A stretch of DNA of 64,000 nucleotides from an uncultured Eubacteriales bacterium (GCA_964541225.1 CAZIPN010000003.1:10007-74006), one strand, 5' to 3'. Counted from the stretch's first letter, positions 26,181-63,619 are shown. The notes: a model not told the origin generated them from the letters alone. A program made the numbers and translations.

Positions 26181-26196
26181 CGACCATCGTTCCGAA

Positions 26197-31282: not shown

Positions 31283-32956
31283 CTAGACCACCACGCGAAG
31301 TATCTCTTCGATTGAGGTCAGGCCCATCTTCACCTTGGCGAATCCGTCGTCTCGCAGCGTGAGCATCCCTTCGTCAATCGCGGAGCGCGCCAACACGTCC
31401 GATGAAGCGTTCTCAACCGTAAGTCGCTCGAGGTTCTCCGACATCCGCATGACCTCGTGAATACCCATCCGGCCCTTGTAGCCGATGTCGTTGCACTTCT
31501 TGCATCCGCGAGCTCGATAGAGCTTCGGTGGATTCCCTGGCTCGAAGGGGAAGCCTATGCGAGTCAGCACCGCCTCCTCGGGCGTGTACTGTTCCTTGCA
31601 ATCGGGGCACAGGCGCCGAGCCAGTCTCTGAGCCATGACAAGCGTGATCGCGGACGCCGAAAGGAACGGCTCGATGCCCATCTCGGTGAGCCTCGTGATC
31701 GCCGAGGGCGCATCGTTGGTATGCAGCGTCGACAGCACGAGATGTCCGGTGAGCGCCGCCTCGATGGCGATCGTGCCAGTCTCCTTGTCGCGGATCTCGC
31801 CGATCATCACCTTGTCCGGGTCCTGCCTCAGGATGGAACGCAGGGCAGACGCGAACGTGAGTCCGGCCTTCTCGTGAACTTGCACCTGAGACAGGCCCGC
31901 AAGCCTGTACTCAACCGGATCCTCGACAGTGATGAGGTTCGTCTTGGGATCGTTCGTTTCGTTGATCGCCGCATAGAGCGTGGTCGACTTACCCGAACCG
32001 GTTGGACCGGTGACCAAGATGGCGCCGTACGGAAGCGCGAGCGCTTCCAGCAGCATCCGCAGGTTGTACTCCAAGAAGCCCAGGTCTTTCAGCGACATCA
32101 TGATCGCGTCCCGGCGCAAGAGACGAAGCACAGCCATCTCGCCGTTCACTACGGGCAAGACCGCCACCCGGAAATCAACTGCTTTGCCGTCCAGTACCAC
32201 GCCGAAACGACCGTCCTGCGGTATGCGCCGCTCGGCGATATCCATGCCGCAGCTGATCTTCAGGCGGCTCACCAGCTGTCGATGCAGCTTCTTCGGCAGT
32301 GTGTTGACTACCTGGCACACACCGTCAATCCGAAAGCGAATGCGCAAGTCACGCTCACCCGGCTCGATGTAGATGTCGCCCGCACCGCTGCGGATCGCCT
32401 CGGTCACAATCTGGTTCATGAGCCGAACGACCACCGACTCGGCGCTTGCCTCCTCGGCTTCCTCCTCGGCCGCAACGCCAACCTGCTGTTCGAGGTCACC
32501 GACCATGTCGCCAACGTTTGTCTGCGAGGCGCTGAATCTCTCGATCGCCGAGAGTAGCTCGCTCTCCGCAGCAACGACCGGTCGAATCTCCCTGCCGGTG
32601 ACGATGCGCACGTCATCGATCGCGAAGATATTGGCCGGGTCGGCCATGGCAATGATGAGTTCGTCGTCTTGCACCTTGATCGGCAGGACAGCGTAGCGGC
32701 GCATCAGATCCAACTTGAGCAGAAGCGCTGCGTTTGGATCGATCTCGTAGGCTCCGATGTCGACGTAGGGCAAGCCCATGGATTCAGCCACGGCCTTGGC
32801 GACGGTGACTTCGTCGGCGAAGCCGAGTTCGTCAAGAACGTGCGGAAGCGGACGACCGTCAGCGACTGCCACTGCCTCGGCAAGTTGCTTGTCATCAATC
32901 AAGCCGGTGCCCACAAGGAGCCGGCCCAATCGCATGCTGTTGGCCGCTGCCGCCAT
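31283..32956 (-). CDS. Type IV pilus/T2SS-type assembly ATPase (GspE family), copy 2
   Basis: 557 aa. N-terminal T2SE_N-like domain (RLGRLLVGTGLIDDKQLAEAVAVA), Walker A GPTGSGKST, IGEIRD, TGHLVLSTLHTN, CPDC...CKKC. The full-length PilB architecture distinguishes it from the shorter PilT. Confidence 0.85.
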   Translation of the reverse strand: MAAAANSMRLGRLLVGTGLIDDKQLAEAVAVADGRPLPHVLDELGFADEVTVAKAVAESMGLPYVDIGAYEIDPNAALLLKLDLMRRYAVLPIKVQDDELIIAMADPANIFAIDDVRIVTGREIRPVVAAESELLSAIERFSASQTNVGDMVGDLEQQVGVAAEEEAEEASAESVVVRLMNQIVTEAIRSGAGDIYIEPGERDLRIRFRIDGVCQVVNTLPKKLHRQLVSRLKISCGMDIAERRIPQDGRFGVVLDGKAVDFRVAVLPVVNGEMAVLRLLRRDAIMMSLKDLGFLEYNLRMLLEALALPYGAILVTGPTGSGKSTTLYAAINETNDPKTNLITVEDPVEYRLAGLSQVQVHEKAGLTFASALRSILRQDPDKVMIGEIRDKETGTIAIEAALTGHLVLSTLHTNDAPSAITRLTEMGIEPFLSASAITLVMAQRLARRLCPDCKEQYTPEEAVLTRIGFPFEPGNPPKLYRARGCKKCNDIGYKGRMGIHEVMRMSENLERLTVENASSDVLARSAIDEGMLTLRDDGFAKVKMGLTSIEEILRVVV

Positions 32957-50194: not shown

Positions 50195-52879
50195 TCAGTA
50201 CCACCAGGTGTACGTCTGCCCAGCGACGCTTGGTGTGATCCACATGCCGTAGGCACTGGCCTTCTCAACCACGTTGCCACCCGCGTCGTCAAGTTCACGT
50301 GAGTCGCACCACACCTGATACTGCTGCCCTATCGGAACGCGCACGTTCCAGTCGACAGCTCCCGGCGTGTCGCCGGCAAGGCTCGTGCTCGCGATCGACG
50401 CGCCGCTGGAGTCCAGGACGCTGAGTTGAGCCTTGGCTAGGCCCGTGGGCTCCCAGCGAAACGCGAGCGTGGCTTCAGTGTCCGCAGCCACTGTGAAGGT
50501 CGCGGTTTCGATCTGCTCGATGTTGCCCGCATTGTCTACCGACCAATACTCAAGCGTGTGCGTTGTCGCAGAGCTCACCGGCGGGGGCACCACCACGCTC
50601 GTGCTTTCGAGCGCCGCAGCGCCATCAAGCCGATAGTACGTCGCATTCACACCCGATCCGCCCGGGTTGTCCACTGCGACAAACGCGATGGTCGCCGTGC
50701 CAACATACGAGCTGAGCGCGTCGGTGACGGTGCTCGGCGCGGTCGCGTCCACTCCGGTGAGCATGCTCGCGGGCTGCACGACGGCACTGCCTGCGGTCGC
50801 GATCTGAGCATGGGGATCCCCGCCGCCATGGCAGTCCGTGCAGTCCTTCGTGGTGGGAACGCCGTCCGCATGGCACACGGCGCAGCTTGTGCGGACCGTG
50901 CTGGTGCTCTCGCTCGCGAGGACCACCTGTGCGGTTGATGTCGCGTCCACGTGCATGGACGCCAGGTCGCCCGAATGGCAGCCCGAGCCGCTCGTGCAAC
51001 TTGAGTTGTCGCCGAGGGGCGTGTGTGCCACGTCGATGTTGGCGTGCATCGGCGAAGTCGACGTCAGCGTGTGGCATCCAGCCTGCGCGCATGTGGTCGG
51101 ATCAAGTGCCGTCACTGTGTCGGCTGGCGACGGGTGGCACTCCGCACACCCGGCATCCGCTCCGGCTGAGCTGGACTTCGCATGCTCCGTAGCAAGATCC
51201 ACTGCGTGGCAGTCTGCACACGAATACGGACCATAGGTGGTCCCGTCGATGGATAGGGTGCTCGACAAGGGACTGAGTGTGTGGTCCGGTCCGGAGTATG
51301 AGTCGGCAGGATTGTGGACGTTGTGTCCGCCCGCGTCGTAGCTGTCACCATGACACGCGTAGCATGAGGTCGCGTCGCCCTTCTCGTGGCCAATCGTCGC
51401 CGATAGCTTCAGCGCACCTCCGCTTCTCGAAATCCCTTCGACCGTCGCGGTCGCCGACACGGGAGTGTAGGTCGTGTCTGTGCTGCTCCACCCCTCGCCG
51501 GTGTCAGCCGTCGTATGGCATGTCAGACAGAACTCGCGAACTCCCGCATCCGTGCTGGTTTCCAAGCTCGCACCGAGCTCATCTGAAAGCATCGAGCTGT
51601 TTGCGCGAGTCGAACCATGTGGGTTGTGGCAGTCGTAGCACGGCAGCGGAGAGCCGACCGGCAGAGTCCCCCCCGCAGTGACGATCCGGTGGCCTGCCGA
51701 GCTATCGGCTCCCGTGGCGAAGCGCTTGATATCGACGGTGGGGGTCGCGAACCCACTCGGCGTGACACCGCCGTGACACGCGAAACAGGAAGCAGCGTAC
51801 GTACCGTCGGCCTGATCGGACGCGAGTGTCGATGGGGTTGGCGGACGGTAGGCCGCCTTCAAGCCGTCGTACTTGTTGGGCCCGCGGTGCGCCGCATGAC
51901 AGTACAAGCAGTCACCCTCGGCACGCTTGACCGAAGCACCTGTCTCAACCGTCTGAGTCGATTCCGGGATCAGGCGATGTGCATTCGATGTGCTGGCATA
52001 GGCGTCTGGTCCGAGCCACGTCCCAGACACCGGATATCCGCTCGCATCACGCGACGGAGCGTCAGCGGAGGGGTAGTCGCTGCCGAACGCAGTGTTGGTG
52101 GCATCGTGGCAGGTTTCGCACCAGGCGGGGCCTGCCGCCGAGACAGTTGCGCTGCTGACATAGGCGGCCGACAGCATCGGGTTGTCGGCAGCTGAACCGT
52201 GCACCTGATGGCAGCTCGCGCAATCTTGGATAGATGACCCGGTGGTGCGCGACTCATCCATCGAGTGCCCGCTCGACAACCCGAAGGAGTCCACTGTGCC
52301 GGTCATGACATTTGCGGCGCCCCAAACCTTGCCGTCGTGGCAACCACGACACAGCGCGGTCGGATCGGGACTGCTTGATGAAAGCTCCGGCCTTCCAAGC
52401 ATCACCGTCGAACCATCGTGGGAAGTGTGGCACTCGACGCACACCGTCGAGTCCTTGCTCTCGTCAACGTGTGGCGTCGCTCCCCAGCTTGAGGTCACGG
52501 GACCACACTGCGCATAGGCGGTTTGATGCCCGTCCGCCAAGACGGCGGTCACGCGGAAGTGGTAGGCCATGCCGGCCAGGCCATCTACGAAATCGTAGTG
52601 GGTCACATTGGAAAGGCCAACGTAGCGATACGGTCCCTCGACGCTTGTCGCCTCGAAGATGAAGTAGCCCTTCGGCGAGACACCGCTCGGCTTGGTCCAG
52701 GACAGCGAGGCGATGATCGGTTGTGTTCCCTGGGTGGCAACCAAGTCGGACGGAGCATCCCCGTTCGCGGCAAAGACGAGTTTCGGTACGGCAAGAGCGG
52801 CGAGTGCGACAACGCATGCGGCCGCTGCCACAAGAGTTCTACGTGCGCCGATTCTCACGTTTGCGATCCGTCGGACCAA
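50195..52879 (-). CDS. Secreted multihaem c-type cytochrome with FN3-like N-terminal and Ig-like C-terminal modules
   Basis: 894 aa. Signal/anchor is RRTLVAAAACVVALAALAVPKLVFA. An FN3-like block follows (LSWTKPSGVSPKGYFIFEATSVEGPYRYVG...YHFRVTAV). There are 13 CxxCH motifs (CVECH, CRGCH, CASCH, CETCH, CLYCH, CFACH, CYDCH, CLTCH, CYACH, CADCH, CAECH, CAVCH, CTDCH), plus CAQAGCH and CTSGSGCH. The C-terminal module contains GSGVNATYYRLDG...HTLEYWSVDNAGNIE. TTG start has a GGGAGAGGG RBS. Confidence 0.85.
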   Translation of the reverse strand: MVRRIANVRIGARRTLVAAAACVVALAALAVPKLVFAANGDAPSDLVATQGTQPIIASLSWTKPSGVSPKGYFIFEATSVEGPYRYVGLSNVTHYDFVDGLAGMAYHFRVTAVLADGHQTAYAQCGPVTSSWGATPHVDESKDSTVCVECHTSHDGSTVMLGRPELSSSSPDPTALCRGCHDGKVWGAANVMTGTVDSFGLSSGHSMDESRTTGSSIQDCASCHQVHGSAADNPMLSAAYVSSATVSAAGPAWCETCHDATNTAFGSDYPSADAPSRDASGYPVSGTWLGPDAYASTSNAHRLIPESTQTVETGASVKRAEGDCLYCHAAHRGPNKYDGLKAAYRPPTPSTLASDQADGTYAASCFACHGGVTPSGFATPTVDIKRFATGADSSAGHRIVTAGGTLPVGSPLPCYDCHNPHGSTRANSSMLSDELGASLETSTDAGVREFCLTCHTTADTGEGWSSTDTTYTPVSATATVEGISRSGGALKLSATIGHEKGDATSCYACHGDSYDAGGHNVHNPADSYSGPDHTLSPLSSTLSIDGTTYGPYSCADCHAVDLATEHAKSSSAGADAGCAECHPSPADTVTALDPTTCAQAGCHTLTSTSPMHANIDVAHTPLGDNSSCTSGSGCHSGDLASMHVDATSTAQVVLASESTSTVRTSCAVCHADGVPTTKDCTDCHGGGDPHAQIATAGSAVVQPASMLTGVDATAPSTVTDALSSYVGTATIAFVAVDNPGGSGVNATYYRLDGAAALESTSVVVPPPVSSATTHTLEYWSVDNAGNIEQIETATFTVAADTEATLAFRWEPTGLAKAQLSVLDSSGASIASTSLAGDTPGAVDWNVRVPIGQQYQVWCDSRELDDAGGNVVEKASAYGMWITPSVAGQTYTWWY

Positions 52880-53099: not shown

Positions 53100-53738
53100 C
53101 TACGCGCGAGGAAAGAACGGATTCAGCTGCCGCTCTCGACCGATCGTCGTGTCAGGGCCATGGCCCGGATGCACGATCGTGTCGGCAGGCAGCCCGACCA
53201 GCTTGCTCGAGATCGACGTCGACAGCGCCCTTCCGTCGCCTCCGGGCAGATCGGTGCGCCCTACGCTGCCCGCGAACAGCGTGTCGCCCGAGAACAGTCG
53301 CGGCGGTGCCCCCGTGGGTTCCTCGGCGAACAGACAGATGCTGCCAGGAGTATGGCCGGGCGTGTGCAAGACCGTGAGTCGGAGCTGACCCGCCTCAAGG
53401 TGGTCGCCATCGTGCAGGAGGTGATCCGGTTGAGGTGCCGTCTCGTCAAACCCGAACATCGCCCCGCCTGTTGCAACTGGATCGCCGAGATCGGCAGAGT
53501 CATCGGCATGCGCGTACAGGGGAGCATCGGTAGCAGCCTTCAACTCCCGCACCGCACCGATATGATCGAAGTGCTTGTGCGTCAGAACGATGGCCGCGAG
53601 GCGTCGCTCCCCTACTGCGTCGAGAATGGCCGAGGCGTCGGCGGCCGGGTCCAGCACCACGGCAGGCCCTCCCACATCGTCCCTGACGATCCAGCAGTTG
53701 GCCTCAAGCGGACCCAACACGAGGCGTTGTACGAACAT
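53100..53738 (-). CDS. MBL-fold metallo-hydrolase (GloB-like)
   Basis: LTHKHFDHIG (HxHxDH motif), HTPGHTPGS and DTLFAGSVGRTD. 1-nt overlap with the relA stop. Confidence 0.85.
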   Translation of the reverse strand: MFVQRLVLGPLEANCWIVRDDVGGPAVVLDPAADASAILDAVGERRLAAIVLTHKHFDHIGAVRELKAATDAPLYAHADDSADLGDPVATGGAMFGFDETAPQPDHLLHDGDHLEAGQLRLTVLHTPGHTPGSICLFAEEPTGAPPRLFSGDTLFAGSVGRTDLPGGDGRALSTSISSKLVGLPADTIVHPGHGPDTTIGRERQLNPFFPRA

Positions 53739-55954
53739 CAGGTTTCACTCCCGCGTTTCTGACCCGCCTCGCCGGGCATCATTCGGCGAGCCTCGAACAC
53801 ACCTTCAACCCCACGCATTTCGCGCAGTATGCCGTCGAGCCTCGACAGGTCCCCTAGCTCGAACAAGAAGCGCATGTCCACAAGACCGTCCCTGTGAGTT
53901 GTGGTGGAGGACGCCAGGATGTTCACTCCCTGTTCGGCAAGTGCAGATGTCACATCCTGCAGAAGACGCAGCCTGTCCATGGCTTCAACGAAGATCTCGA
54001 CCTGGAACGTGGTGTCCTTGCCGAGATCCCACTCCACGTCGATTATTCGCTCCGGTGAGGACAGCAGCTCACGCGCGTTTGGACAGTCCTTCCGGTGCAC
54101 CGAGACCCCGCGTCCGCGGGTCACAAACCCGATGATATGGTCACCCGGAACCGGATGGCAGCAGTTCGCCAACCTGATCAGCGCGTCGTCGAGTCCCTTG
54201 ACCTTGACACCCCCGGCGGCCCGCCGGCGTTTGCTGCGTGGGGCAAGCATGGGTTTGTCGAGCGTGAACTCCTCGTGAGCTGGCTCTGGCTCGACCCCCT
54301 CGCCCTCCTTGGCCATAAGCTTGAGCAGCTTCGTGCCAACATGTTTCGCCGAGACCTTGCCAGCACCTATCGCCGCGATTATGTCGTCGGCATGCGCGTA
54401 GTTCATCTCATGCGACACCGTGCCGATTGCCTTCTCGGCGGTCTTCGACCCAATGCCGAGACCGTGCTTGCGCATCACCTTCGACAGCTCATCACGACCG
54501 CGGACGAGGTCATCCTCACGAGTGACCTTGCTGAAGTAGCTGCGGATCTTGCTCTTCGCCGATGACGTTCGGACGATGTTGAGCCAGTCGCGCGAGGGAC
54601 TCGCGTTCTTGTTGGTGAGGATCTCTACGCGATCGCCCATCTGCAGTTCATAGCCGAGCGGGACGATGGCACCGTTGACCTTTGCGCCCACGCAGTGATT
54701 CCCGACCTCAGTGTGGATCGCGTAGGCAAAATCGATGGGCGTCGAGCCTCGCTTCAAGCTGATAACGTCGCCCTTCGGGGAGAAGACGAACACCTCCTCC
54801 TCGAACAGGTCGATCTTGAGCGCTTCCATGAACTCACGTGGATCCTTGAGTTCTGTCTGCCACTCCAGCATCTGGCGCAGCCATGCTAGGCGCTCATCGA
54901 AGCTGTCTTCGCCGCGAACGCCCTCTTTGTAGCGCCAGTGTGCCGCAACGCCGTACTCTGCCGTCCTGTGCATCTCCTCGCTGCGAATCTGGATCTCAAG
55001 CGGCGCGCCCGTTGGCCCTATGACCGTCGTGTGCAGTGACTGGTACATGTTGAACTTGGGCATCGCAACGTAGTCTTTAAACCGCCCGGGCACCGGCTTC
55101 CAGATTGAGTGCACAGTGCCCAACGCGCCGTAGCAATCCTTGACCGAATCCACCAGCACTCGCAGCGCAATGAGATCGTAGATCTCGTTGAAGTCTTTGC
55201 CTTTGCGCGTCATCTTCTGATAGACGCTGTACAAATGCTTGGGTCGGCCGGAGATTCGCGCCTGAATACCGACGGCAGCAAGCTCATCGGTGAGCTCGTC
55301 GATCACACGCTGCATGTATTCTTCGCGCGCCTGTCGGCTCTCGGCGACCATGCGCGACACCTGATGGAACTTGTGCGGCTCGAGGTAGTAGAAAGACAGA
55401 TCCTCGAGTTCCCACTTGATGCTGGAGATGCCGAGCCGATGCGCCAACGGCGCGTAGATCTCCATCGTCTCGCGAGCCTTGTCGATCCGTCGGTCCTCAG
55501 GCAGCGCCGCGAGCGTGCGCATGTTGTGCAGCCGGTCGGCGAGCTTGATGAGGATGACGCGGATGTCTTTCGCCATGGCGATGAGCATCTTGCGCAAGTT
55601 GTTGGATTGCGCCTCGGACAGCGATTCGAACTCGATCTGCCCGAGCTTGGTGACCCCATCGACAAGTTCGGTGACCTCATCACCAAAACGCTTGCGCACC
55701 TCGTCAAGCGTCACTCCGGAATCCTCAACAACGTCATGAAGCAGCGCAGCCTTGAGCGTCGGCGTGTCCATGTGGAGTTCAGCGAGAATGAGCGCGACCT
55801 CGATGGGATGATTGACGAACGCCTCGCCGCTCTTGCGAGTTTGCCCTGCGTGGGATTGGACCGCGAAATCGTACGCGTCATCCAGACCGGTCAGATCGGC
55901 GTCAGGGTTGTACGCGAGGACCTGCGCCTCGATCTGCTCAAGAGTCGCGGACAT
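53738..55954 (-). CDS. relA: Bifunctional (p)ppGpp synthetase/hydrolase (RelA/SpoT homolog)
   Basis: 738 aa with an HD domain (HPIEVALILAEL, LLHDVVEDS), synthetase domain (YRSLHTTV-type: MYQSLHTTVIGP), TGS and ACT domains. Confidence 0.95.
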   Translation of the reverse strand: MSATLEQIEAQVLAYNPDADLTGLDDAYDFAVQSHAGQTRKSGEAFVNHPIEVALILAELHMDTPTLKAALLHDVVEDSGVTLDEVRKRFGDEVTELVDGVTKLGQIEFESLSEAQSNNLRKMLIAMAKDIRVILIKLADRLHNMRTLAALPEDRRIDKARETMEIYAPLAHRLGISSIKWELEDLSFYYLEPHKFHQVSRMVAESRQAREEYMQRVIDELTDELAAVGIQARISGRPKHLYSVYQKMTRKGKDFNEIYDLIALRVLVDSVKDCYGALGTVHSIWKPVPGRFKDYVAMPKFNMYQSLHTTVIGPTGAPLEIQIRSEEMHRTAEYGVAAHWRYKEGVRGEDSFDERLAWLRQMLEWQTELKDPREFMEALKIDLFEEEVFVFSPKGDVISLKRGSTPIDFAYAIHTEVGNHCVGAKVNGAIVPLGYELQMGDRVEILTNKNASPSRDWLNIVRTSSAKSKIRSYFSKVTREDDLVRGRDELSKVMRKHGLGIGSKTAEKAIGTVSHEMNYAHADDIIAAIGAGKVSAKHVGTKLLKLMAKEGEGVEPEPAHEEFTLDKPMLAPRSKRRRAAGGVKVKGLDDALIRLANCCHPVPGDHIIGFVTRGRGVSVHRKDCPNARELLSSPERIIDVEWDLGKDTTFQVEIFVEAMDRLRLLQDVTSALAEQGVNILASSTTTHRDGLVDMRFLFELGDLSRLDGILREMRGVEGVFEARRMMPGEAGQKRGSET

Positions 55955-56008: not shown

Positions 56009-58861
56009 TCATTCACACACAACAGTGTACGTGACGGTCGTGGCATACGTCCCAGGATCGAAGGCCCACGGCGGTGTCAACACGAAATCGAATCGATAGT
56101 CGTGCTCCCACACATGGCCATCGCCTGCCGAGGTGTCTAGCTTGTACGGCGCGACCGTGAACGGCTGTTCCGACTGCACTATCCACCCGCTTGTGCTGTA
56201 CGTGAGCGTGTCGACTGGCATCGTCGGGGTGACCGAGCCGGAATCGGTGTTCGTGAAGTCCTCGGCACTGCACCACAGGTCATAGGTCAAGTCGCCAACA
56301 CCGCCGACCAGAACCGTCGTCGCGCTCGCCACCGTCGACGACTCGCCAGGATTGATTGCCCCCATGTAGACGGTATCCGCGGACAAGGACATCCATAGCG
56401 CGGCGTCTGGCGTCGTACCAACAACGGTGACACTGTGTGCCGAGGTAAGACCCGCGTGGTTGTAGGCCACGATGTAGTACGAGTAGCTGGTTCCTGGCGT
56501 CAGGCTTGTGTCCGTGTATGCAAGCGCTGTGGTGGTTGTCACCAACGATCCATCGCGATACACCGCATAGTAGGAGACGCCAGACTGAGCATCAGTCGAT
56601 GGCGCCCACGAGACCTCTATGCTCGTGGTGCTCACTGCGCTCGCGCCAACCGACGTGGGAATCGACGGCGGTGTCGTGTCGAGCTGCAGGATGGCCGTTT
56701 GCGCTGTCTCGATGTGCCCGACATTGTCGACCGAGTAGAAATTGAGCGTGTGAGTGCCATCGACCCCTGGGGGGAACGGCGCAGTGTAGTTGGCCCACGG
56801 GCTGCCGTCGTATCGGTACCTCGTGTAGGCGACACCTGAGCCGGCATCCGTCGCGGTGATGCTTATGCTCGGCAGCGAACTCGTCCATCCGACCGGGATG
56901 TTGCATGTGCTGATGGGCGGGAAGCTCTCAATGAGGAACGGTCCTATGCTCGTAGCAGTTGGGTTCCAGTTGTCGCGCCCGTCGACCGCTCGGACGTTGA
57001 AGTACCAATGGCCATCGCCTGGCGCGGCGGACGTGCTGTTGGGTGTAGGGACGACACCAACGATCGAGATCTCGTCCCAGTCGACGTACTCCGTCCACCC
57101 CCGCACATTCGCTCCGAAGCGAACCATGTAGGCGCTGCTCAAGTTCGGCAGGGCGACGCTGTGCTGCGTCCAGTTCTGCGCAGGGGGTCTTCCCGATACG
57201 TAATACAGGTCGGTCCACGTTGCTCCACCGTCAGTCGAATAGCTCACCGACTCGAAGTTGGCGTTGCGATTGAATGCACTGTGACTGTCCCACCACGTCA
57301 GCGTCGCGGACTGGAAGGCGGACAGGTCATACGTCTTGTAGAAGTAGTCCTCTCGGTACGTGTTGCTGTTGGCCCACACCTCGGCGGCGTTTGGAGCAAG
57401 GTGATAGCGTCCTGCGGCGCCGGTGATGCGCAGGAAGCCGTCGTTCGAAGCCGGCTCCGTCCAGTCCGCCGGGAACGAGGCGCCGTCAAACGCCTGGTTC
57501 TCCTCGGTCACCGAAGCGGTGACGCCCGGTGTGTAGGTGACCGTGTCGGTGGCGGTGTCTGGCAGCCCCGGCGCGTCTCTCGTCCAGCTGAAGCTGTACC
57601 CGGCGAGGCCACTCCCGGCATCAGTGGAGACACTCCATGCCGCTGTCATGGTTGCAACGCCAGACCATACATTCGGTACATGAGTTGGCGACCACGCCCA
57701 TGGCTGAGTGGGAGGCGTCGTGTCAACGACCGTGATCGTCTGCGTTGCCACCGTTGTCGCACCGTCGTCGTCAGTCGCCGTCCAAGTGACCTCAGTGCTG
57801 CCAAACGGCAGCAGACTCCCGGCGACGGGGTTCCGCGTGAACGAGACGACCGTGCCGTCGCCGTCGGTGGCCTGCGCGTCCGTGGCGCCGCTGTAGCCTG
57901 TGTAGCCGGTGGTCGAGTTGGCTTCGAGAGTCTTCGTCGTGAAGTCCAAACTGATAGTGGGTGGCACGTTCACAACCGTGCCGTTGCGCACTTGCCATAT
58001 GTAGCGCCCGAGGACGCCACCCGAGTCCAAGGAGTTCTGAATGAGCGATGTCGAAGAACTAGAAGAATCGAGAAGGGCACTCGGGCCACCCATCGGTGCG
58101 AGGGAGCCGGCCAGTTCGTAGGACCCGTCGGCGCCCTGCGCAGTCGACCAGCCGACAACGGCACGACCAGGCTGCCCACCGGTCGCAGTCCCCGTGTCCC
58201 AATTGATGGTGTTGTAGTTGAACATGATGTCGAAGTTGCCGGCCCCCGTGTCCGAGCGGTCAACAAGCACCATCTGAAACGAGTTCGTGTTCGCTGACGC
58301 CCACCCGTTGTTGTACGACATCACGTCAATCCAGTTGACGATGAAGCAGTTGTGTCCCTCGAACGTTGGTGGAGTCGCCGTCCCGCTGTAGGTGAGCTGG
58401 CCAGAACCACCGTTGCTCGTATCCACATCGGCGAAGAAGGGCGCGATGATTGGCAGATACGGCCGCGGCCACGCGTAGTACCGCGTGGTGGTCAGGTCGT
58501 GCGACTGGTAGGTTTCCGGATAGTTCGAGTCGCAATATGGATCCACGAACGTACAGTTGCCGTTCATGTTGATGTAGATCTGGCTGTAGGGCGTCCCCAG
58601 CCAGTTCATTGCGAACGGCAGATTGACGACTAGGTTGTTCGAGTCATCTCCACGGGCGACCGTGTTGTCTGCGTAGTGTGTCGGCGTGATGATCGCATCC
58701 GCATCCGCGAACGCCGAAACCGGCGAGACAGCGCACCAGGTCAGAAGAACCAGGAACGCCAACAAGCCCACGAGTACCCGTCCTCGCGGGCTGGCGGCAG
58801 GCCTAGACGCTTGCACGCCCAGAACCGGCCCTTCTCTAATGCTGGCTCTGCGCTCCTTCAT
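56009..58861 (-). CDS. Secreted multidomain surface protein: NIDO-like + HYR-like + jelly-roll + Ig-like + FN3
   Basis: Signal peptide is LVGLLAFLVLLTWCAVSPVSAFA|DA. NIDO hallmarks are IYINMNGNCTF, LPIIAPFFADVDT, TNSFQMVL, NYNTINWDTG and GRYIWQVRNG. The HYR-like block is PPTISLDF...FGSTEVTWTATDDDGATTVATQTITVVD. FN3 is IEVSWAPSTDAQSGVSYYAVYRDG...YSYYIVAYN. The start is set at MKERRAS (58861, GGAGAA upstream). Confidence 0.7.
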   Translation of the reverse strand: MKERRASIREGPVLGVQASRPAASPRGRVLVGLLAFLVLLTWCAVSPVSAFADADAIITPTHYADNTVARGDDSNNLVVNLPFAMNWLGTPYSQIYINMNGNCTFVDPYCDSNYPETYQSHDLTTTRYYAWPRPYLPIIAPFFADVDTSNGGSGQLTYSGTATPPTFEGHNCFIVNWIDVMSYNNGWASANTNSFQMVLVDRSDTGAGNFDIMFNYNTINWDTGTATGGQPGRAVVGWSTAQGADGSYELAGSLAPMGGPSALLDSSSSSTSLIQNSLDSGGVLGRYIWQVRNGTVVNVPPTISLDFTTKTLEANSTTGYTGYSGATDAQATDGDGTVVSFTRNPVAGSLLPFGSTEVTWTATDDDGATTVATQTITVVDTTPPTQPWAWSPTHVPNVWSGVATMTAAWSVSTDAGSGLAGYSFSWTRDAPGLPDTATDTVTYTPGVTASVTEENQAFDGASFPADWTEPASNDGFLRITGAAGRYHLAPNAAEVWANSNTYREDYFYKTYDLSAFQSATLTWWDSHSAFNRNANFESVSYSTDGGATWTDLYYVSGRPPAQNWTQHSVALPNLSSAYMVRFGANVRGWTEYVDWDEISIVGVVPTPNSTSAAPGDGHWYFNVRAVDGRDNWNPTATSIGPFLIESFPPISTCNIPVGWTSSLPSISITATDAGSGVAYTRYRYDGSPWANYTAPFPPGVDGTHTLNFYSVDNVGHIETAQTAILQLDTTPPSIPTSVGASAVSTTSIEVSWAPSTDAQSGVSYYAVYRDGSLVTTTTALAYTDTSLTPGTSYSYYIVAYNHAGLTSAHSVTVVGTTPDAALWMSLSADTVYMGAINPGESSTVASATTVLVGGVGDLTYDLWCSAEDFTNTDSGSVTPTMPVDTLTYSTSGWIVQSEQPFTVAPYKLDTSAGDGHVWEHDYRFDFVLTPPWAFDPGTYATTVTYTVVCE

Positions 58862-59007
58862 GTGCGTTTCTCCGTCCGGCACAACGGCGTCACGTCGCGT
58901 GTTCGTGTCACCAAGCACCGGGGTCCGGCGGATAACGCTTGTCCACCTAAGAATCGGCCGAAATCGATACCTCCTGAAGGTCGGGGCGCTTCCCGTGCAC
59001 TTCAACA

Positions 59008-62000
59008 TCAGACGGCTGGGAGGATCGGGCGGTTGAATCGGGCAAGCAGCTCATCGGCCTCGGCTGACAGAACCCAAGCCTTGAACCCCCGGAACTCCGC
59101 TATCTCATCCTTGCCTTCAGCGTATCGAAGGCTCTCGTCGAGGTTCACTTTCTGTTCGCTGGGCGTAAACGAGAGTCTCCGGTAGGAGCCGTGCCCTTCT
59201 CCAGCGACGAATCCCAGGTCACGCAGTATGCCGAGTGCCGAAGAGACCCCTCTCTCGTCGAGTTGGCAACTCCGCCGAACTCGCTTGCAGCGCTCGGCGA
59301 GTTCGGCGTTTGTGATCTCGAACAGGCGCCCCTCAGCTGCTGCGACATCGCGCAGCACGACGTAGAGCGCCGCCATGTCGTCGCGCTCGGGCGCCAGCGA
59401 GGACAAGATCGACTCGTTGATGCGCGCGTCCTTCCCACCGAAAAGCAAATGAATTCGCGCGACCGCACCGTCTCGGCCAGCTCGGCCGGACATCTGATTG
59501 AACTCGACACTGCTAAACGGCATGTGAAAGAGCACGACGTTGCGAATGTCGGGGACATTGACGCCCTCGCCAAACGCGCTCGTCGCGATGATTACGCTGA
59601 TCTCGCCCGCACGAAAAGCCCTCTCCACCGCATGGCGCATCGACCGACCCATACCGCCGTTGTAAAACGCTGTACGCATCGCAAGGTGCGGAACATGCTT
59701 GCGAAGTCGCCGTGCGAGTCGAACGGTCTGTTCGCGGGAGTTCACATAGACAACCGTCTTCTCTCCACGCGAGACGATCTCCTCGACGTACGCTTCTCGG
59801 TTCGCGACATCTCTGCGATCCTCGACCACCAGATTCTCTCGCACGGTCGGATCGAGAACGACCGCCGATATCTTCAATGAGGATCGGATCGCCTGCGCCG
59901 CAGCATCGTCCGCAGTCGCCGTGACGGCGAGAACCGTCGGGTTGCCCAGGGGCTCGAGTGTCTCGCCCAGTCGAGCGTACGCGGGCCGGTTGCCTGCGCG
60001 CGACAATCCTACGTGATGCGCCTCATCGATCACGAGGAAACCGACTCTCCCAGACTCGGCAAAACGCCCCGCGTAGAGGTGCAAGAACTCTGGCGTCGTG
60101 AGCGCGACGTCTAGAGTACCGTCACGCAAGTCGGCAAATGCTTGATCGCGTTCCGCTTGGCTGGATTCGCCGGTAATCGTCCGAACGGTGAGGCCGACCT
60201 CGGCGAAATCCTCCTCAAGGTGGTGCGCCTGGTCCGACACGAGTGCTCGCAACGGGTACACGAAGACACTTGCCCGCGCATGACGCAGCGCGATGCGAGC
60301 CGCGTGAAGATGGAAGATCAGTGACTTGCCGCGCCCCGTAGCCATGACGGTCAGCGTGGACTCGCCAGCTGCAAGATGGGAAAGCGCTTGCGTCTGCGCG
60401 ACGTGGAGGCTCCGCTCACCAAGGAAGCAGCGCACGAGTTCGGCATCAAGCGCCGCAGCGTCTAGCGCTGCAAGTTCCGCCCGCCGTCTCGCCCGCACGG
60501 CAGCACGCTCATCTTGAGTGTCGGCGGTGTCTCGACGGGTGAGAAGAACGTTGACCCCCAAAGACTGCCCGTCCGCTCCTCCTGTGACCTCCGTGACCTC
60601 AACGTCGTAGCCAACACCAGCGTCGATGGTCGGAGCGAGTGCCGCCGCCAGACGACGGTTCAGAAAGCCAACTTGATCCCCTTGGGGATCAAAGAGGGCA
60701 CACGCGTTGGTGTCGAATTGGTTCTCTGGTTGCCGTTCGAGTCGAAGTGGCGTTCCTGCCGAGACACGCACAAGCACCTCTTGACGGCCTTCGAACGTCA
60801 CACCAGCGAGCTTGGTGTGAAATGATGGCGCGTCGCCGATACCTGCGTACTCTTCGCGCGCCAGGATTTCATCGGCACGCGAGAACAGATCTTCGATCAG
60901 GTCGTGAGCTGGCGCGTCTTCTGAGGGCTCGTGCGCCACCGCATCCTCAATCCGCATCTGCACACGCCTGCGTCCACGCCACTCATCGACCGAGACGGAA
61001 AATGCCAAGTCCACCGCCGCCTCGTGTCCAGCCATCCGATCAATCTCGGGACACCGAAACGCAATGGCTTGCACGCTGACCGCCCCATCAAAGGCGGTGA
61101 ACCTCAGGTGGTTCGCCAGCTTGCCGACGCGCTGTCGACCGTTCATGAAGACTCCGCCGACGGCAAGAACTGGTCGGCGATTGCCATGCCCGAACGGCTC
61201 CAGTTGGGAGAGTTCTGTCGCCATCTCCACGCCGATGTCCGAGAGATCAACAAGCGCATCGACGCTGCGCTCGACGCGGAACTGCTCGGCAGGTAGCGCA
61301 TCGAGATGCTTGAGAAGATGTTCGGTGAACCGGTCGAGGTTCTCGGCAGGTAGCGCACAACCGACGGCTGCGGCATGCCCGCCAAAACGCGTAAGTACAT
61401 CCGAGCAGGACTCAAGCGCCCGGAAGAGATCAACGCTGCCCACAGACCTCCCGCTGCCTGAGGCGACCCCGTCATCGATGGCAAAGAGCAGCACCGGAAC
61501 CTTGAACCGCGCTGCCAGCCGAGATGCCACAATGCCCTTCACACCCTCGTGCCAGCCTTCTCCGGCCAGAACCAGCGCGCGCTGGCCGGAGTAGATACGG
61601 TCAGCCATGGCAGAAGCCGCCTCGCTCAGGTCAGCTTCCGTGGCCTGTCGTGTGCGATTGAGTTCATCGAGCGACCTGGAGAGCGACTCGGCGAGGACCG
61701 GATCATCCGTGAGCAGCAAGTCCAACGCGACCTGAGGATCAGCCATGCGACCAGCGGCGTTCATCCGGGGCGCGAGCGCGAAAGCCACTGAGTCCGTGGT
61801 GAATGAGTCCAGAGCGGTACCGGCCACTGCCGCCAATGCGGCGATCGCCACTCTTGGTTGCATGCGCATGCGCGCCACCCCGTCGGCAACCAATGCGCGA
61901 TTCTCAGATGTCAGCGGGACTATGTCAGCGACGGTACCGAGCGTCGCCAGATCCGTTAGATCTCGCCACACCTCGGGAAAACCAAGCCGCTCGCCTACAG

Positions 62001-62634
62001 CCTGTACGAGTTTGAGCGCGACACCAGCGCCTGCCAAGTCAGCAGACCCGCACGACGAGTCATCGAGTTTGGGATCGGCCACGGGTACGCCCGTTGGCAG
62101 CCGATCACCAGGTTCGTGATGGTCGGTTACCACAGTACGGACGCCCTTATCGGCTAAGAGCGCAATTTCGTCGGCCGCTGAGATACCGCAGTCGACGGTG
62201 ACGAGCAGATTCGGTCGCAGGGGCATGATCCGCTCTATCGCCGCAGCTGAAAGACCGTAGCCCTCGGTGAACCGGTGTGGAACCACCGCGGTTACCCGCG
62301 CGCCCATGGCTTGAAGGCCACGGGTGGCAACGGCCGCCGAGGATATGCCGTCGAGGTCAAAATCGCCAAACACGACGATATGTTCGCCGGCACGAACAGC
62401 CTCGGCAACAACTTCAGTAGCAGCGGCCATGCCAGGAATGCGCGTCGGATCGAGCCAATCGCGCTCCAGGCTCGGCGAGAAGAAGCGCTCAACCGCGTCC
62501 GGAGTGGCAATACCGCGTCCAACCAAGATGCGCGACGTTATGGCAGAGACGCCGGTCTGAGCACGTATTCTCTCAACAAGCGCTTCATCCGCAGCGACGA
62601 GTGACCATGGGTTCTCTGGCAGCAGTCTTGTCAT
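59008..62634 (-). CDS. recJ: RecJ (DHH/DHHA1 ssDNA exonuclease) - HIRAN - RecQ-like SF2 helicase fusion protein
   Basis: The N-terminal ~570 aa is RecJ (GDFDLDGISS, TVDCG, VVTDHHEPG, GGHAAAVG, OB-fold region). The HIRAN block is FHTKLAGVTFEGRQEVL...LERQPENQFDTNACALFDPQGDQVGFLNRRLAAAL. The helicase has ATGRGKS, DEAH, TATA and QMSGRAGRDG. The start is set at MTRLLPEN (ATG at 62634) to avoid overlap with secF. Confidence 0.85.
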   Translation of the reverse strand: MTRLLPENPWSLVAADEALVERIRAQTGVSAITSRILVGRGIATPDAVERFFSPSLERDWLDPTRIPGMAAATEVVAEAVRAGEHIVVFGDFDLDGISSAAVATRGLQAMGARVTAVVPHRFTEGYGLSAAAIERIMPLRPNLLVTVDCGISAADEIALLADKGVRTVVTDHHEPGDRLPTGVPVADPKLDDSSCGSADLAGAGVALKLVQAVGERLGFPEVWRDLTDLATLGTVADIVPLTSENRALVADGVARMRMQPRVAIAALAAVAGTALDSFTTDSVAFALAPRMNAAGRMADPQVALDLLLTDDPVLAESLSRSLDELNRTRQATEADLSEAASAMADRIYSGQRALVLAGEGWHEGVKGIVASRLAARFKVPVLLFAIDDGVASGSGRSVGSVDLFRALESCSDVLTRFGGHAAAVGCALPAENLDRFTEHLLKHLDALPAEQFRVERSVDALVDLSDIGVEMATELSQLEPFGHGNRRPVLAVGGVFMNGRQRVGKLANHLRFTAFDGAVSVQAIAFRCPEIDRMAGHEAAVDLAFSVSVDEWRGRRRVQMRIEDAVAHEPSEDAPAHDLIEDLFSRADEILAREEYAGIGDAPSFHTKLAGVTFEGRQEVLVRVSAGTPLRLERQPENQFDTNACALFDPQGDQVGFLNRRLAAALAPTIDAGVGYDVEVTEVTGGADGQSLGVNVLLTRRDTADTQDERAAVRARRRAELAALDAAALDAELVRCFLGERSLHVAQTQALSHLAAGESTLTVMATGRGKSLIFHLHAARIALRHARASVFVYPLRALVSDQAHHLEEDFAEVGLTVRTITGESSQAERDQAFADLRDGTLDVALTTPEFLHLYAGRFAESGRVGFLVIDEAHHVGLSRAGNRPAYARLGETLEPLGNPTVLAVTATADDAAAQAIRSSLKISAVVLDPTVRENLVVEDRRDVANREAYVEEIVSRGEKTVVYVNSREQTVRLARRLRKHVPHLAMRTAFYNGGMGRSMRHAVERAFRAGEISVIIATSAFGEGVNVPDIRNVVLFHMPFSSVEFNQMSGRAGRDGAVARIHLLFGGKDARINESILSSLAPERDDMAALYVVLRDVAAAEGRLFEITNAELAERCKRVRRSCQLDERGVSSALGILRDLGFVAGEGHGSYRRLSFTPSEQKVNLDESLRYAEGKDEIAEFRGFKAWVLSAEADELLARFNRPILPAV

Positions 62635-62707
62635 GGATGCATAGTAGCCGAGGGGGCTGACACAAGAGTGCCAGCCCCGCAGGACGCTTCCGCTGCGGGC
62701 ACGTCGC

Positions 62708-63619
62708 CTACGACGCGTTCGCGTACTTCTTGGCGAGCGCCTTGTACTTTGGCTCGGTTTCTTTCCAGATGGCAAAGATGGGCGCGGCAACCCCGATGGA
62801 CGAATAGGCTCCGGACGCCAGACCAATCACAAGCGCCAGCGCGTAGTCCTTGAGCGTCACTCCGCCGAAGATCAGCAGTACGACGACGGGAATCAGCGAC
62901 GTCAGCGACGTGTTTATGGATCGCATGAGCACCTGGTTGACCGACTCGTTCGCCATGCTCATGAAGGACTGCTTCACCAGCCCTGCCGAGTTCTCCTTCA
63001 TGCGATGGAACACGACGATCGTGTCGTAGAGCGAGTATCCGAGAATCGCCAGGAGCGCAGCCACGACGTTCGGCGAGACTTCCCATCCAACCAGAGCGTA
63101 GAGTCCGAGCGTGATCAAGATGTCGTGGACGAGCGCGACGATCGCGGTCACGGACATCTTGTATTCGAATCGGATCGACACGTACAGCAGAATCGCCAGG
63201 ATCGAAACCGCGAGCGCCACCAGCGAGCTGCTGGTGATGTTCTTGCCCCACTCCGGACCAATGGTCGTGACCTGGAAGCCGTCCGAAGGAAGCCCCACCT
63301 CGCTAGAGGCCTTCGCGGCCGCGGTGTTGGCGATCGCCGCACTCGTCTCACTACTTCGGACGATGTAGCCGCGCACGCCTCTGACAGTCGACTGCTGAAC
63401 CTGCACATTGGCAAGCCCCGCCTTCTTGAAGGCCTGACTCATCTGCGCCTGTGTGACACTGCCGGACTTGGAGACATTGACGACCGTTCCGCCTTCGAAT
63501 TCAACTCCGAACTTCAACCCACGAACAGCGAGGGCACCGATGGCCACGACAATGAGAACAGCGGAGACAATGAACATGATGTTGCGATTGCCCATGAAGT
63601 TGACGTTGAACTTATGCAT
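62708..63619 (-). CDS. secF: Protein translocase subunit SecF
   Basis: MHKFNVNFMGNRNIMFIVSAVLIVVAIGAL, GGT domain and C-terminal TM bundle fit the SecF pattern. 8-nt overlap with the secD end. Confidence 0.9.
   Translation of the reverse strand: MHKFNVNFMGNRNIMFIVSAVLIVVAIGALAVRGLKFGVEFEGGTVVNVSKSGSVTQAQMSQAFKKAGLANVQVQQSTVRGVRGYIVRSSETSAAIANTAAAKASSEVGLPSDGFQVTTIGPEWGKNITSSSLVALAVSILAILLYVSIRFEYKMSVTAIVALVHDILITLGLYALVGWEVSPNVVAALLAILGYSLYDTIVVFHRMKENSAGLVKQSFMSMANESVNQVLMRSINTSLTSLIPVVVLLIFGGVTLKDYALALVIGLASGAYSSIGVAAPIFAIWKETEPKYKALAKKYANAS

Follow-up and report, generated by a model that had tools for sequence, protein, structure and literature searches.

The locus lies within a 64,000-nucleotide stretch of DNA (the window) and comprises a gene for a long modular protein with a nidogen-like (NIDO) domain, preceded by a gene for a RecJ-helicase fusion and followed by one for a bifunctional RelA/SpoT homologue, all three on the same strand (Table 1).

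Table 1. Features of the locus, in the direction of transcription. Coordinates are those of the window and residue numbers those of the 950-aa product.
Feature	Residues	Coordinates	Strand	Basis or remarks
RecJ (DHH-DHHA1-RecJ_OB)-HIRAN-SF2 helicase fusion, upstream neighbour		59008..62826	-	Pfam; gap 146 bp
GGAG ribosome-binding site		58870..58873	-	8 nt 5' of ATG 58861; direct sequence reading
Protein-coding ORF	1-950	56009..58861	-	ATG at 58861, stop codon 56009-56011, 950-aa product
Sec-type signal peptide	1-52	58706..58861	-	Basic n-region, hydrophobic core LVGLLAFLVLLTWCAV, AFA|DA cleavage site
NIDO (nidogen-like) domain, N-terminal 'head'	53-297	57971..58705	-	Pfam PF06119 and AF2
HYR-type Ig-like domain	300-383	57713..57964	-	PF02494 and AF2
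Split Ig/FN3-like domain, N-terminal half	384-445	57527..57712	-	AF2 strands 405-409, 419-428
Jelly-roll inserted in Ig-like domain loop	about 446-605	57047..57526	-	AF2 beta-sandwich, pLDDT 88-96
Split Ig/FN3-like domain, C-terminal half	606-648	56918..57046	-	Motif GHWYFNVRAVDGRDNW; AF2 strands 608-612, 617-627, 637-644; aligns to short paralogue
OmpL47-type Ig-like beta domain	649-727	56681..56917	-	NCBIfam NF047446
Fibronectin type III domain	728-818	56408..56680	-	PF00041
Unannotated C-terminal beta-sandwich, 132 aa	819-950	56012..56407	-	AF2 pLDDT about 89-96
Bifunctional RelA/SpoT homologue, downstream neighbour		53738..55954	-	Pfam HD, RelA_SpoT, TGS, ACT; gap 54 bp

Gene callers of two sources (NCBI and Logan) chose the same start codon, and the product is identical to the independent calls in the NCBI (P0001) and Logan (L001) assemblies. 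Every motif string quoted in a first-pass annotation of this DNA is present in the translation. The pseudogene that it had allowed for is contradicted by an intact ORF and by ~95 clusters of full-length homologues (42-60% identity), all with the entire architecture, a conservation far beyond chance. The mature product (~96 kDa, pI about 4.1) is Thr/Ser-rich, has only 3 Lys and is all-beta, and its AlphaFold (AF2) model is modular and of high confidence (mean pLDDT 83.7). Profile scans with Pfam and NCBIfam detected no catalytic family anywhere in the protein at any threshold. The gene is thus intact and predicted to encode an exported protein of several domains, tipped by a genuine NIDO domain, and its present annotation as a 'nidogen-like domain-containing protein' is correct.

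The position between recJ and relA had been recognised correctly, but the gene is not inserted there as had been supposed: the order secF-recJ/helicase-NIDO gene-relA-MBL is kept in eight other distinct MAG loci, and the GC content (0.60-0.63) equals that of the flanks. The conserved slot and the flank-like GC therefore argue for vertical inheritance and not for recent acquisition, and the wide spread of NIDO domains in prokaryotes likewise speaks against a recent horizontal origin. These data point to a vertically inherited, lineage-specific core gene of uncultured Coriobacteriia, which are monoderm. At the eight syntenic loci RelA is 72-87% identical and the flanking genes overall 56-87%, but the NIDO protein only 43-45%, a gap typical of a fast-evolving exposed protein whose architecture is under purifying selection. 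Six full-length copies sit outside the recJ-relA slot, and hence the family is not strictly single-locus. A scan for consensus terminators and hairpins found no terminator-like site in either the 146-bp or the 54-bp gap; judged by this absence alone, the gene probably shares a transcript with recJ and relA, in which case it would be expressed constitutively.

Export by way of a signal peptide, as first proposed, agrees with all that we could read from the N-terminus. The protein has a single hydrophobic segment (aa 22-54 in a 19-residue window scan), modelled by AF2 as a helix at 25-43, and then the site A50-F51-A52|D53, in which A50 and A52 are at least 90% conserved among 60 homologues. The signal peptide as read has no twin-arginine motif, and a lipoprotein reading fails because C43 is preceded by L-T-W, and Trp at position -1 is unfit for the lipobox [LVI][ASTVI][GAS]C. 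The earlier remark that no anchor is visible at the C-terminus can be extended to the classical anchors in general. LPXTG is absent (the sole LPxTG-like string is LPDTA at aa 433), neither SLH (PF00395) nor CW_binding_2 (PF04122) appears at E<=1 in a Pfam scan of the protein, and a PEP-CTERM tail (PEP motif, TM helix, Arg-rich end) is lacking; the protein ends in ...TYTVVCE, with no C-terminal TM segment or hydrophobic window in a hydrophobicity scan. Since several other secreted proteins encoded by a related MAG carry CW_binding_2, which is absent here, the present protein may simply be released instead of staying at the surface.

The NIDO assignment is secure: PF06119 scores 65.7 bits against a cutoff of 25, aa 94-292 spanning HMM positions 2-185 of 186, and precomputed matches to this family exist in most homologues. 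Modelled on its own by AF2, the domain forms a two-sheet beta-sandwich (pLDDT 85, pTM 0.87). Thirty-six columns, including DD, NxNGN, APxxxDxD, NSFQ, GxFD and GRY, are invariant between the Coriobacteriia and distant bacterial NIDO domains. The view of NIDO and HYR as mostly metazoan modules is wrong or misleading, given the at least 262 prokaryotic loci with NIDO relatives found in one scan of species-representative prokaryotic genomes (among the matches listed are Acidobacteriota, Cyanobacteria, Planctomycetota, Proteobacteria, Gemmatimonadota, Verrucomicrobiota and Nitrososphaera) and the archaeal and bacterial HYR proteins that were also among the homologue-search matches. Small proteins made up of a signal peptide, NIDO and PEP-CTERM account for 26 of the 47 diderm NIDO proteins inspected, their NIDO domains being 36-45% identical to the present one; PEP-CTERM proteins reportedly form an exosortase-sorted class tied to exopolysaccharide production. 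That bacterial occurrences are essentially uncharacterised was a fair description, a full-text literature search having turned up no publication about a NIDO protein from bacteria. We found no solved NIDO structure, bacterial or animal, by sequence or by Foldseek, and the domain had no Foldseek match at E<=0.001 (all E>=1.9, probability <=0.04); its binding role is therefore argued from context and analogy, and its many invariant Asp, Asn and Arg residues might just as well belong to an active site or bind a metal.

Next come four modules that would form an Ig-like stalk: HYR-type, split Ig/FN3-like, OmpL47-type and fn3. The HYR call lies at the border of significance, with 18.6 bits for aa 309-378 in the whole protein, below the PF02494 cutoff of 21.7, but 25.6 and 25.0 bits, above it, for the segment alone. 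No other family recurs in this segment, 11 of 30 homologous segments match at E<=0.01 and AF2 models aa 300-383 as a seven-strand Ig-like beta-sandwich (pLDDT 84-94); HYR identity is hence borderline but probable. The module described earlier simply as Ig-like is an OmpL47-type domain (NF047446, aa 665-723, 59.8 bits against a cutoff of 40), and the single FN3 is confirmed by PF00041 (aa 734-806, 34 bits against 25), with PDB FnIII matches to the family profile, including chitinase A1 FnIII and 8pn5, down to E 5e-23. The OmpL47-type module also occurs in a neighbouring multihaem cytochrome (window 50489-50659) and in an S8 peptidase and a cytochrome of locus L004, and large multihaem cytochromes bearing it lie a few kb from the gene in three loci.

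The jelly-roll interrupts the split Ig/FN3-like domain, whose two halves run contiguously in a 750-aa paralogue; the short paralogue L004/L019 has ~10 residues in place of the segment (aa ~441-615). The fold itself, as first proposed, is supported by the AF2 model and by an exact Asp-box, STDGGATW (aa 542-549, found by regular expression), but the MAM-like affinity suggested with it is sub-threshold, with matches to Reelin_subrepeat-B at E 0.03 and to an InhA-like MAM domain at E 0.05 and with 13.5 and 14.5 bits for PF20773 and PF21471 against cutoffs of about 27. Precomputed PF21471 matches are found in two longer homologues (P0002 and P0007). The jelly-roll is the least conserved of the domains (34-42% identity).

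The C-terminal beta domain perceived in the first reading is real in the AF2 model, and it matches nothing in Pfam, NCBIfam or the PDB. It is among the better conserved parts of the protein (38-52% identity), measures 131-132 aa in 57 of 59 homologues and stands at the extreme C-terminus in all. Searched as a profile against 1.84 billion proteins, it yielded 116 matches, among them stand-alone secreted proteins of 150-190 aa in Actinomycetota and Bacillota (E down to 1e-25) and N-terminal copies in large DUF11/SdrD_B-type proteins. From relatives that stand alone or at the N-terminus we infer that it is no dedicated C-terminal sorting module.

With moderate confidence we read this product as a putative extracellular binding protein, constitutively expressed, which would be an adhesin or matrix organiser by context and analogy. 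The large adhesin or matrix-binding protein first proposed is a reasonable suggestion, and no result of the analysis speaks against it. It would be exported by the Sec pathway and processed by signal peptidase I to the mature form, in which the NIDO beta-sandwich would serve as a distal ligand-binding head on the Ig-like stalk. The most likely ligand would be a glycan or exopolysaccharide, which we favour because the NIDO-PEP-CTERM proteins are reportedly tied to exopolysaccharide and because the jelly-roll combines an Asp-box with weak MAM and Reelin-subrepeat similarity. The jelly-roll would then be a second, more variable, putative carbohydrate-binding module, dispensable in paralogues, and the terminal 132-aa beta-sandwich may keep the product surface-bound by associating non-covalently with the wall, a partner protein or itself.

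A self-assembling S-layer or other envelope lattice, with the C-terminal domain making lattice contacts or attaching to the wall, is unlikely, even though it would suit a mature protein so large, acidic, Thr/Ser-rich and all-beta with hardly any Lys, encoded by a core gene at a housekeeping locus throughout the clade and outpacing the flanking genes in divergence, as coat proteins at the surface do. The S-layer genes known so far are as a rule transcribed singly and at very high levels, but this one lies within a same-strand housekeeping run, and no strong promoter or terminator belonging to it could be recognised; moreover, SLH and CW_binding_2 are missing, although relatives place the latter on other secreted proteins, and paralogues exist both with and without the jelly-roll.

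A further reading would make the product a secreted enzyme active on polysaccharide or the cell wall, with NIDO as its catalytic module, so far unrecognised, and with the Ig, FN3 and jelly-roll parts as accessories that target it to the substrate. The many invariant acidic or polar NIDO residues (DD, NxNGN, DxD, DR, GxFD) would fit this, as would the FN3 and CBM-like jelly-roll, which are common in secreted glycanases (the FN3 matches include chitinases and a DUF3472 protein), and the NIDO Foldseek neighbours PL26 lyase, GH101, OpgD/MdoD and mutarotase-type super-sandwiches. These neighbours, however, are weak and non-significant, as given above, and a catalytic family is found at no threshold; bare NIDO with a PEP-CTERM tail is the commonest prokaryotic setting among the proteins inspected, and the animal proteins that define the NIDO family are non-enzymatic matrix proteins. 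We consequently consider an enzyme quite improbable.

The stand-alone relatives of the C-terminal domain raise the idea of a tip or accessory adhesin on an undescribed monoderm surface fibre, whose 132-aa Ig-like end would be a pilin-type module and dock on polymerised small homologues, much as in two-domain tip adhesins that join a lectin to a pilin. A layout of head, stalk and terminal module would suit this, and 3 of 9 small relatives resemble the C-terminal domain of Pam pilins of CPR bacteria (NF058581, E 0.001-0.02), which are small secreted Ig-like subunits joined by donor-strand exchange (bioRxiv 10.64898/2026.03.03.709456). Yet all three matches are sub-threshold (15-19 bits against a cutoff of 55), aa 819-950 of the present protein have none at E<=1, and the AF2 sandwich is complete and confident, last strand included. 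Each of the small homologues, moreover, stands as a solo gene, following pstSCAB, adjacent to ychF or near unknowns, with no chaperone, usher, sortase or signal-peptidase partners in the inspected loci, and none occurs in the window or the fetched loci. A fibre tip is thus very doubtful. A recent horizontal acquisition of an animal-like adhesion gene, or a decaying or unexpressed ORF, is effectively refuted: the names NIDO, HYR and Reelin subrepeat do derive from animal proteins and the gene does interrupt an otherwise universal recJ-relA neighbourhood, but against this stand the synteny in eight other MAGs at 43-45% protein identity, a GC content equal to the flanks, the wide prokaryotic spread of NIDO, an intact reading frame of 950 codons and the ~95 full-length clusters.

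The reading as an extracellular binding protein can be taken further, although what follows is a long shot. Because the C-terminal domain has no family, is always terminal and has stand-alone secreted relatives, it might represent a system for surface attachment or polymer docking, as yet undescribed, in monoderm anaerobes, in which the present protein would be a clade-wide constitutive holdfast whose NIDO and jelly-roll bind exopolysaccharide or mineral, maybe together with multihaem cytochromes; NIDO would, as a corollary, be an ancient prokaryotic exopolysaccharide-matrix domain, taken over later by animals for proteins of the basement membrane and for mucins. Should the head bind exopolysaccharide, this would hint at the role of NIDO before the animal extracellular matrix. 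Nidogen, mucin-4 and alpha-tectorin all contain the domain, yet no solved structure was found for it; this family supplies a well-behaved prokaryotic NIDO for structural and ligand work, with a confident model and 36 positions invariant across phyla, and adds a second, unannotated domain at the C-terminus. It is unusual, too, that a whole uncultured clade keeps the gene for such a large exposed protein in a slot among housekeeping genes.

Among known systems, the whole-chain Foldseek neighbours (E 1e-9 to 1e-13) share the plan of one or more jelly-roll ligand-binding modules on an Ig/FN3 chain: the MAM-Ig-FN regions of RPTPmu (2v5y) and PTPRK (8a1f), Eph ectodomains (EphA4, 4bk5) and the bacterial grappling-hook adhesin GhpA (9flp), with contactins also among the neighbours. 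This likeness is generic to tandem beta-sandwiches (TM-scores 0.10-0.17, identity 9-13%), and the jelly-roll is here inserted within an Ig-like domain, in contrast to its N-terminal place in MAM and Eph receptors, and matches no MAM profile at threshold. With Leptospira OmpL47, a surface protein according to its NCBIfam description, and with OmpL47-type domain proteins (NF047441 and NF047446), one module is held in common (aa 649-727); orthology to OmpL47 was rejected, since the full-length NF047441 score is 33.5 bits against a cutoff of 250. The metazoan NIDO proteins (nidogen-1/2 in the G1 region, mucin-4, alpha-tectorin, SNED1) carry a NIDO homologous to the present one, which matches PF06119 over almost its full length; they are extracellular, as the present protein is predicted to be, and likewise have NIDO near the N-terminus of a long modular chain, but EGF, AMOP, vWD, G2 and LDL-receptor modules are absent here, where NIDO is joined instead to Ig-like modules of bacterial type and to a C-terminal domain of a new kind. 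Also related are the prokaryotic NIDO-PEP-CTERM proteins (about 270-310 aa) of Acidobacteriota, Cyanobacteria, Planctomycetota, Proteobacteria and Gemmatimonadota, which have NIDO directly after the signal peptide and share its invariant motifs; they consist of the bare domain and an exosortase sorting tail in diderm hosts, whereas the protein of these monoderm Coriobacteriia is three times longer, with a five-module extension and, instead of PEP-CTERM, a folded end of 132 residues.

The 950-aa NIDO protein belongs to a real, conserved and uncharacterised family. Its best-supported reading, which we hold with slightly better than even confidence, is that of an exported, non-enzymatic binding protein, because no catalytic family was detected anywhere in it by profile searches, whole-chain Foldseek comparison groups it with ectodomains of adhesion proteins and receptors and with the GhpA grappling hook, and NIDO occurs elsewhere in PEP-CTERM proteins. 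We infer its binding function, ligand class and the role of its tail: the NIDO domain would form the head; four Ig-like modules would make up a rigid stalk, on which the jelly-roll, of carbohydrate-binding type, would be a second module, variable and dispensable; and the family-specific tail would serve in retention or association.

The protein is identical to a database protein in the NCBI (P0001) and Logan (L001) assemblies. A longer reading of the ORF, to 59008, is possible; the start at 58861 was chosen by two independent gene callers, and every motif string quoted in the first-pass annotation is found in the translation. The signal peptide proposed there is borne out by a single hydrophobic segment followed by A50-F51-A52/D53, with A50 and A52 at least 90% conserved in 60 homologues. 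The predicted mature protein has 898 aa (~96 kDa, pI ~4.1), and the residue counts include 121 Thr, 91 Ser, 63 Asp and only 3 Lys. A sequence scan revealed no lipobox, LPXTG motif or hydrophobic segment at the C-terminus and, in membership tests on its sequence, the protein was not an SLH, CW_binding_2 or PEP-CTERM protein, nor a lipoprotein. That it builds an S-layer-type coat is unlikely.

The NIDO and fn3 domains called in the first pass both scored above cutoff, and its 'Ig-like module' could be identified as an OmpL47-type domain. Judged by these profiles, the protein is a member of all three domain families, and probably of HYR; an orthologue of OmpL47 was rejected as its identity, since the membership is that of a domain family only. 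The HYR call was borderline: the segment scored above cutoff when excised but below it in the whole-protein scan. HYR was the sole recurrent family in alignments of the equivalent homologue segments (matching 11 of 30), and this is probably a divergent HYR-type Ig domain. An AlphaFold2 model built from 60 homologues (mean pLDDT 83.7) is wholly beta except for the signal-peptide helix. From the model and comparison with the 750-aa paralogue (L004/L019), two separate stretches make up one Ig/FN3-like domain with the jelly-roll in its loop; in the paralogue these halves are contiguous, with ~10 residues in place of the jelly-roll. The jelly-roll block noted earlier is upheld as a beta fold with an exact Asp-box, STDGGATW, but its matches to Reelin subrepeat-B and the InhA-like MAM domain are all sub-threshold. 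The C-terminal beta domain, also noted then, is a confident beta-sandwich (pLDDT about 89-96).

Features of the NIDO protein (aa), its gene and neighbours (window nucleotides), and related loci
Feature	Position or handle	Strand	Details
NIDO gene	56009-58861	minus	ATG 58861; stop codon 56009-56011; ribosome-binding site GGAG 8 nt 5' of ATG
Hydrophobic segment	aa 22-54
NIDO domain	aa 53-297		profile match aa 94-292, 65.7 bits (cutoff 25), nearly entire model covered
HYR-type segment (probable)	aa 309-378		18.6 bits whole-protein; 25.6 and 25.0 bits excised (cutoff 21.7)
Ig/FN3-like domain	aa 384-445 + 606-648
Jelly-roll insert	about aa 446-605		~160 residues
OmpL47-type beta domain	aa 665-723		59.8 bits (cutoff 40)
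fn3	aa 734-806		34 bits (cutoff 25)
C-terminal domain	aa 819-950		132 residues
recJ fusion	59008-62826	minus	about 1208-1272 aa; RecJ (DHH, DHHA1, RecJ_OB) + HIRAN + SF2 helicase (DEAD/ResIII, Helicase_C)
relA	53738-55954	minus
MBL	53100-53738	minus	MBL-fold hydrolase
Multihaem cytochrome	50195-52879	minus	894 aa, secreted; 13 CxxCH + one CxxxxCH; Pfam Paired_CXXCH_1, Cytochrome_C7; FN3-like N-terminus
OmpL47-type module of cytochrome	50489-50659
Two PilB-like ATPases flanking 813-aa DUF4388 protein	24429-26930, 28028-30469, 31283-32956	minus	ATPases: T2SSE with MshEN domains
BNR_4 protein and S8 peptidase	L004 2103-9803		peptidase 1344 aa; both proteins with CW_binding_2 repeats and OmpL47-type modules
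Syntenic loci	L002/L015, L003/L007, L006, L008, L009, L011, L012, L018		order secF-recJ/helicase-NIDO-relA-MBL
Small proteins, C-terminal domain alone	P0140, P0144, P0150, P0153, P0154/P0231, P0160		loci L084-L088

Whole-chain Foldseek searches of the PDB gave generic tandem Ig/FN3 chains only and are uninformative for single domains. Modelled alone, the NIDO domain is a two-sheet sandwich (pLDDT 85, pTM 0.87) with no Foldseek match in the PDB at E ≤ 0.001; its best matches, to legume lectins and to the 'super-sandwich' modules found in glycan-active enzymes (E 2-9, probability ≤ 0.04), were dropped as too weak. Among PDB sequences, no NIDO-containing chain was matched by a whole-family profile or a NIDO-only one; with a profile of just the C-terminal domain included, the FN3 module was the only part with solved relatives. 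Since neither approach gave a NIDO match, we found no solved NIDO structure. The Coriobacteriia proteins share 36 invariant positions with distant bacterial NIDO domains, including DD, NxNGN, APxxxDxD, NSFQ, DR, GxFD and GRY, which would be compatible with a metal or ligand site and equally with an active site. That the protein is an unrecognised enzyme could accommodate these residues, and is quite improbable with no catalytic family detected.

Full-length homologues fall into ~95 clusters (42-60% identity, 94-100% coverage), the named ones all from uncultured Coriobacteriia or Actinomycetota MAGs and some already labelled 'nidogen-like domain-containing protein' by NCBI; other size groups are shorter (~750 aa) or longer (1270-1440 aa). 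In species-representative prokaryotic genomes, the full architecture occurs at 15 loci among the matches listed, and NIDO relatives at no fewer than 262, at least. Those at 36-45% identity, among the matches listed, lie in Acidobacteriota (many Bryobacteraceae), Cyanobacteria, Planctomycetota, Proteobacteria, Gemmatimonadota, Verrucomicrobiota and one Nitrososphaera archaeon. We reconstructed 47 ORFs from prokaryotic NIDO loci (L020-L083), 26 of which, from diderms, have a minimal signal peptide, NIDO and PEP-CTERM tail arrangement (about 270-310 aa); Bryobacteraceae have versions of ~1000 aa with a conserved ...SNS.G.....C tail. Going by these predicted ORFs, NIDO in prokaryotes mostly sits in cell-surface proteins that belong to the exosortase/PEP-CTERM class. 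Calling NIDO mostly metazoan, as the earlier description did, is thus an artefact of naming. No publication on a bacterial NIDO protein came up in a full-text literature search, and the NIDO-rich preprint that it did find concerns vertebrate nidogen only.

The C-terminal domain has no relatives in Pfam, NCBIfam or PDB sequences. Its length is 131-132 residues in 57 of the 59 homologues, and its place is always the protein's end. Searching 1.84 billion representative proteins with a profile of the domain yielded 116 relatives, of which those outside the NIDO family and its fragments are of two kinds. One comprises secreted proteins of 150-190 aa in which the domain stands alone; they come from Actinomycetota MAGs and from Bacillota (Gelria sp. 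Kuro-4, for example), are all 'hypothetical' where named and belong to no Pfam or NCBIfam family. In the other, the domain is an N-terminal copy within DUF11/SdrD_B-type proteins of 1350-1420 aa. Three small relatives weakly match the C-terminal domain of the Pam pilins of CPR, recently described (bioRxiv 10.64898/2026.03.03.709456), which would favour a tip adhesin of a new kind of fibre; however, these matches are all sub-threshold and no assembly genes adjoin the four small homologues whose neighbourhoods were inspected, making this very unlikely. The NIDO protein's own domain has no such match, and Pam pilin identity was rejected. Given its two groups of relatives, the sub-threshold Pam matches and neighbourhoods without assembly machinery, the domain is therefore a new, mobile beta-sandwich module. 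On two Actinomycetota contigs, a small gene of this type lies immediately downstream of pstS-pstC-pstA-pstB and the genes for a two-component system.

The NIDO gene is flanked by genes for the RecJ-HIRAN-SF2 helicase fusion, across a gap of 146 bp, and for a RelA/SpoT homologue, across one of 54 bp; the three genes share a strand. Neither gap has terminator-like hairpins, promoter/terminator and Rfam scans of the window found nothing, and the gene would be co-transcribed with its neighbours. Gene order is kept in eight other distinct MAG loci, across which identity is 72-87% for RelA, 59-72% for RecJ and only 43-45% for the NIDO protein, and GC is 0.60-0.63 across gene and flanks. The position first reported between recJ and relA is correct, but not the insertion: recent transfer or a pseudogene is effectively refuted, being ruled out by synteny, flank-like GC and the intact conserved ORF. 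The gene is vertically inherited, fast-evolving and architecture-conserving, in a housekeeping slot. The first-pass observation and domain calls hold, then, and its 'animal-like' and 'inserted' framings fail, NIDO being widespread in prokaryotes and the locus syntenic. Six further full-length copies (L005, L010, L013, L014, L016, L017) lie outside this slot, adjoining, for example, riboflavin genes or a DUF711 gene. The RecJ-HIRAN-helicase fusion is itself kept in every syntenic locus examined, and the relA-MBL pair is common to all; MBL begins on the final base of relA's stop codon, so that the two genes overlap by 1 nt, an arrangement suggestive of coupled translation.

The window also encodes a secreted multihaem cytochrome with the OmpL47-type module that the NIDO protein has too; in this monoderm it may take part in extracellular electron transfer. 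Its counterparts are a 16-haem cytochrome after MBL in the syntenic locus L012 and a 12-haem one beside the short paralogue (L004/L019); none was found near the gene at the other 11 distinct loci, and extracellular electron transfer was rejected as a general NIDO association. In a related MAG (L004), BNR_4 and S8 peptidase genes also adjoin this paralogue; its CW_binding_2-bearing secreted neighbours indicate that the lineage therefore has a wall-anchoring system, unused by the NIDO family. About 25 kb from the NIDO gene, the T2SSE and DUF4388 genes look like a type IV pilus-like cluster.

Compared with known bacterial modular 'nidogen-like' surface proteins, the putative binding protein described here differs in belonging to a monoderm lineage, in its domain-in-domain jelly-roll, in ending in an unannotated domain and in occupying a conserved housekeeping locus.
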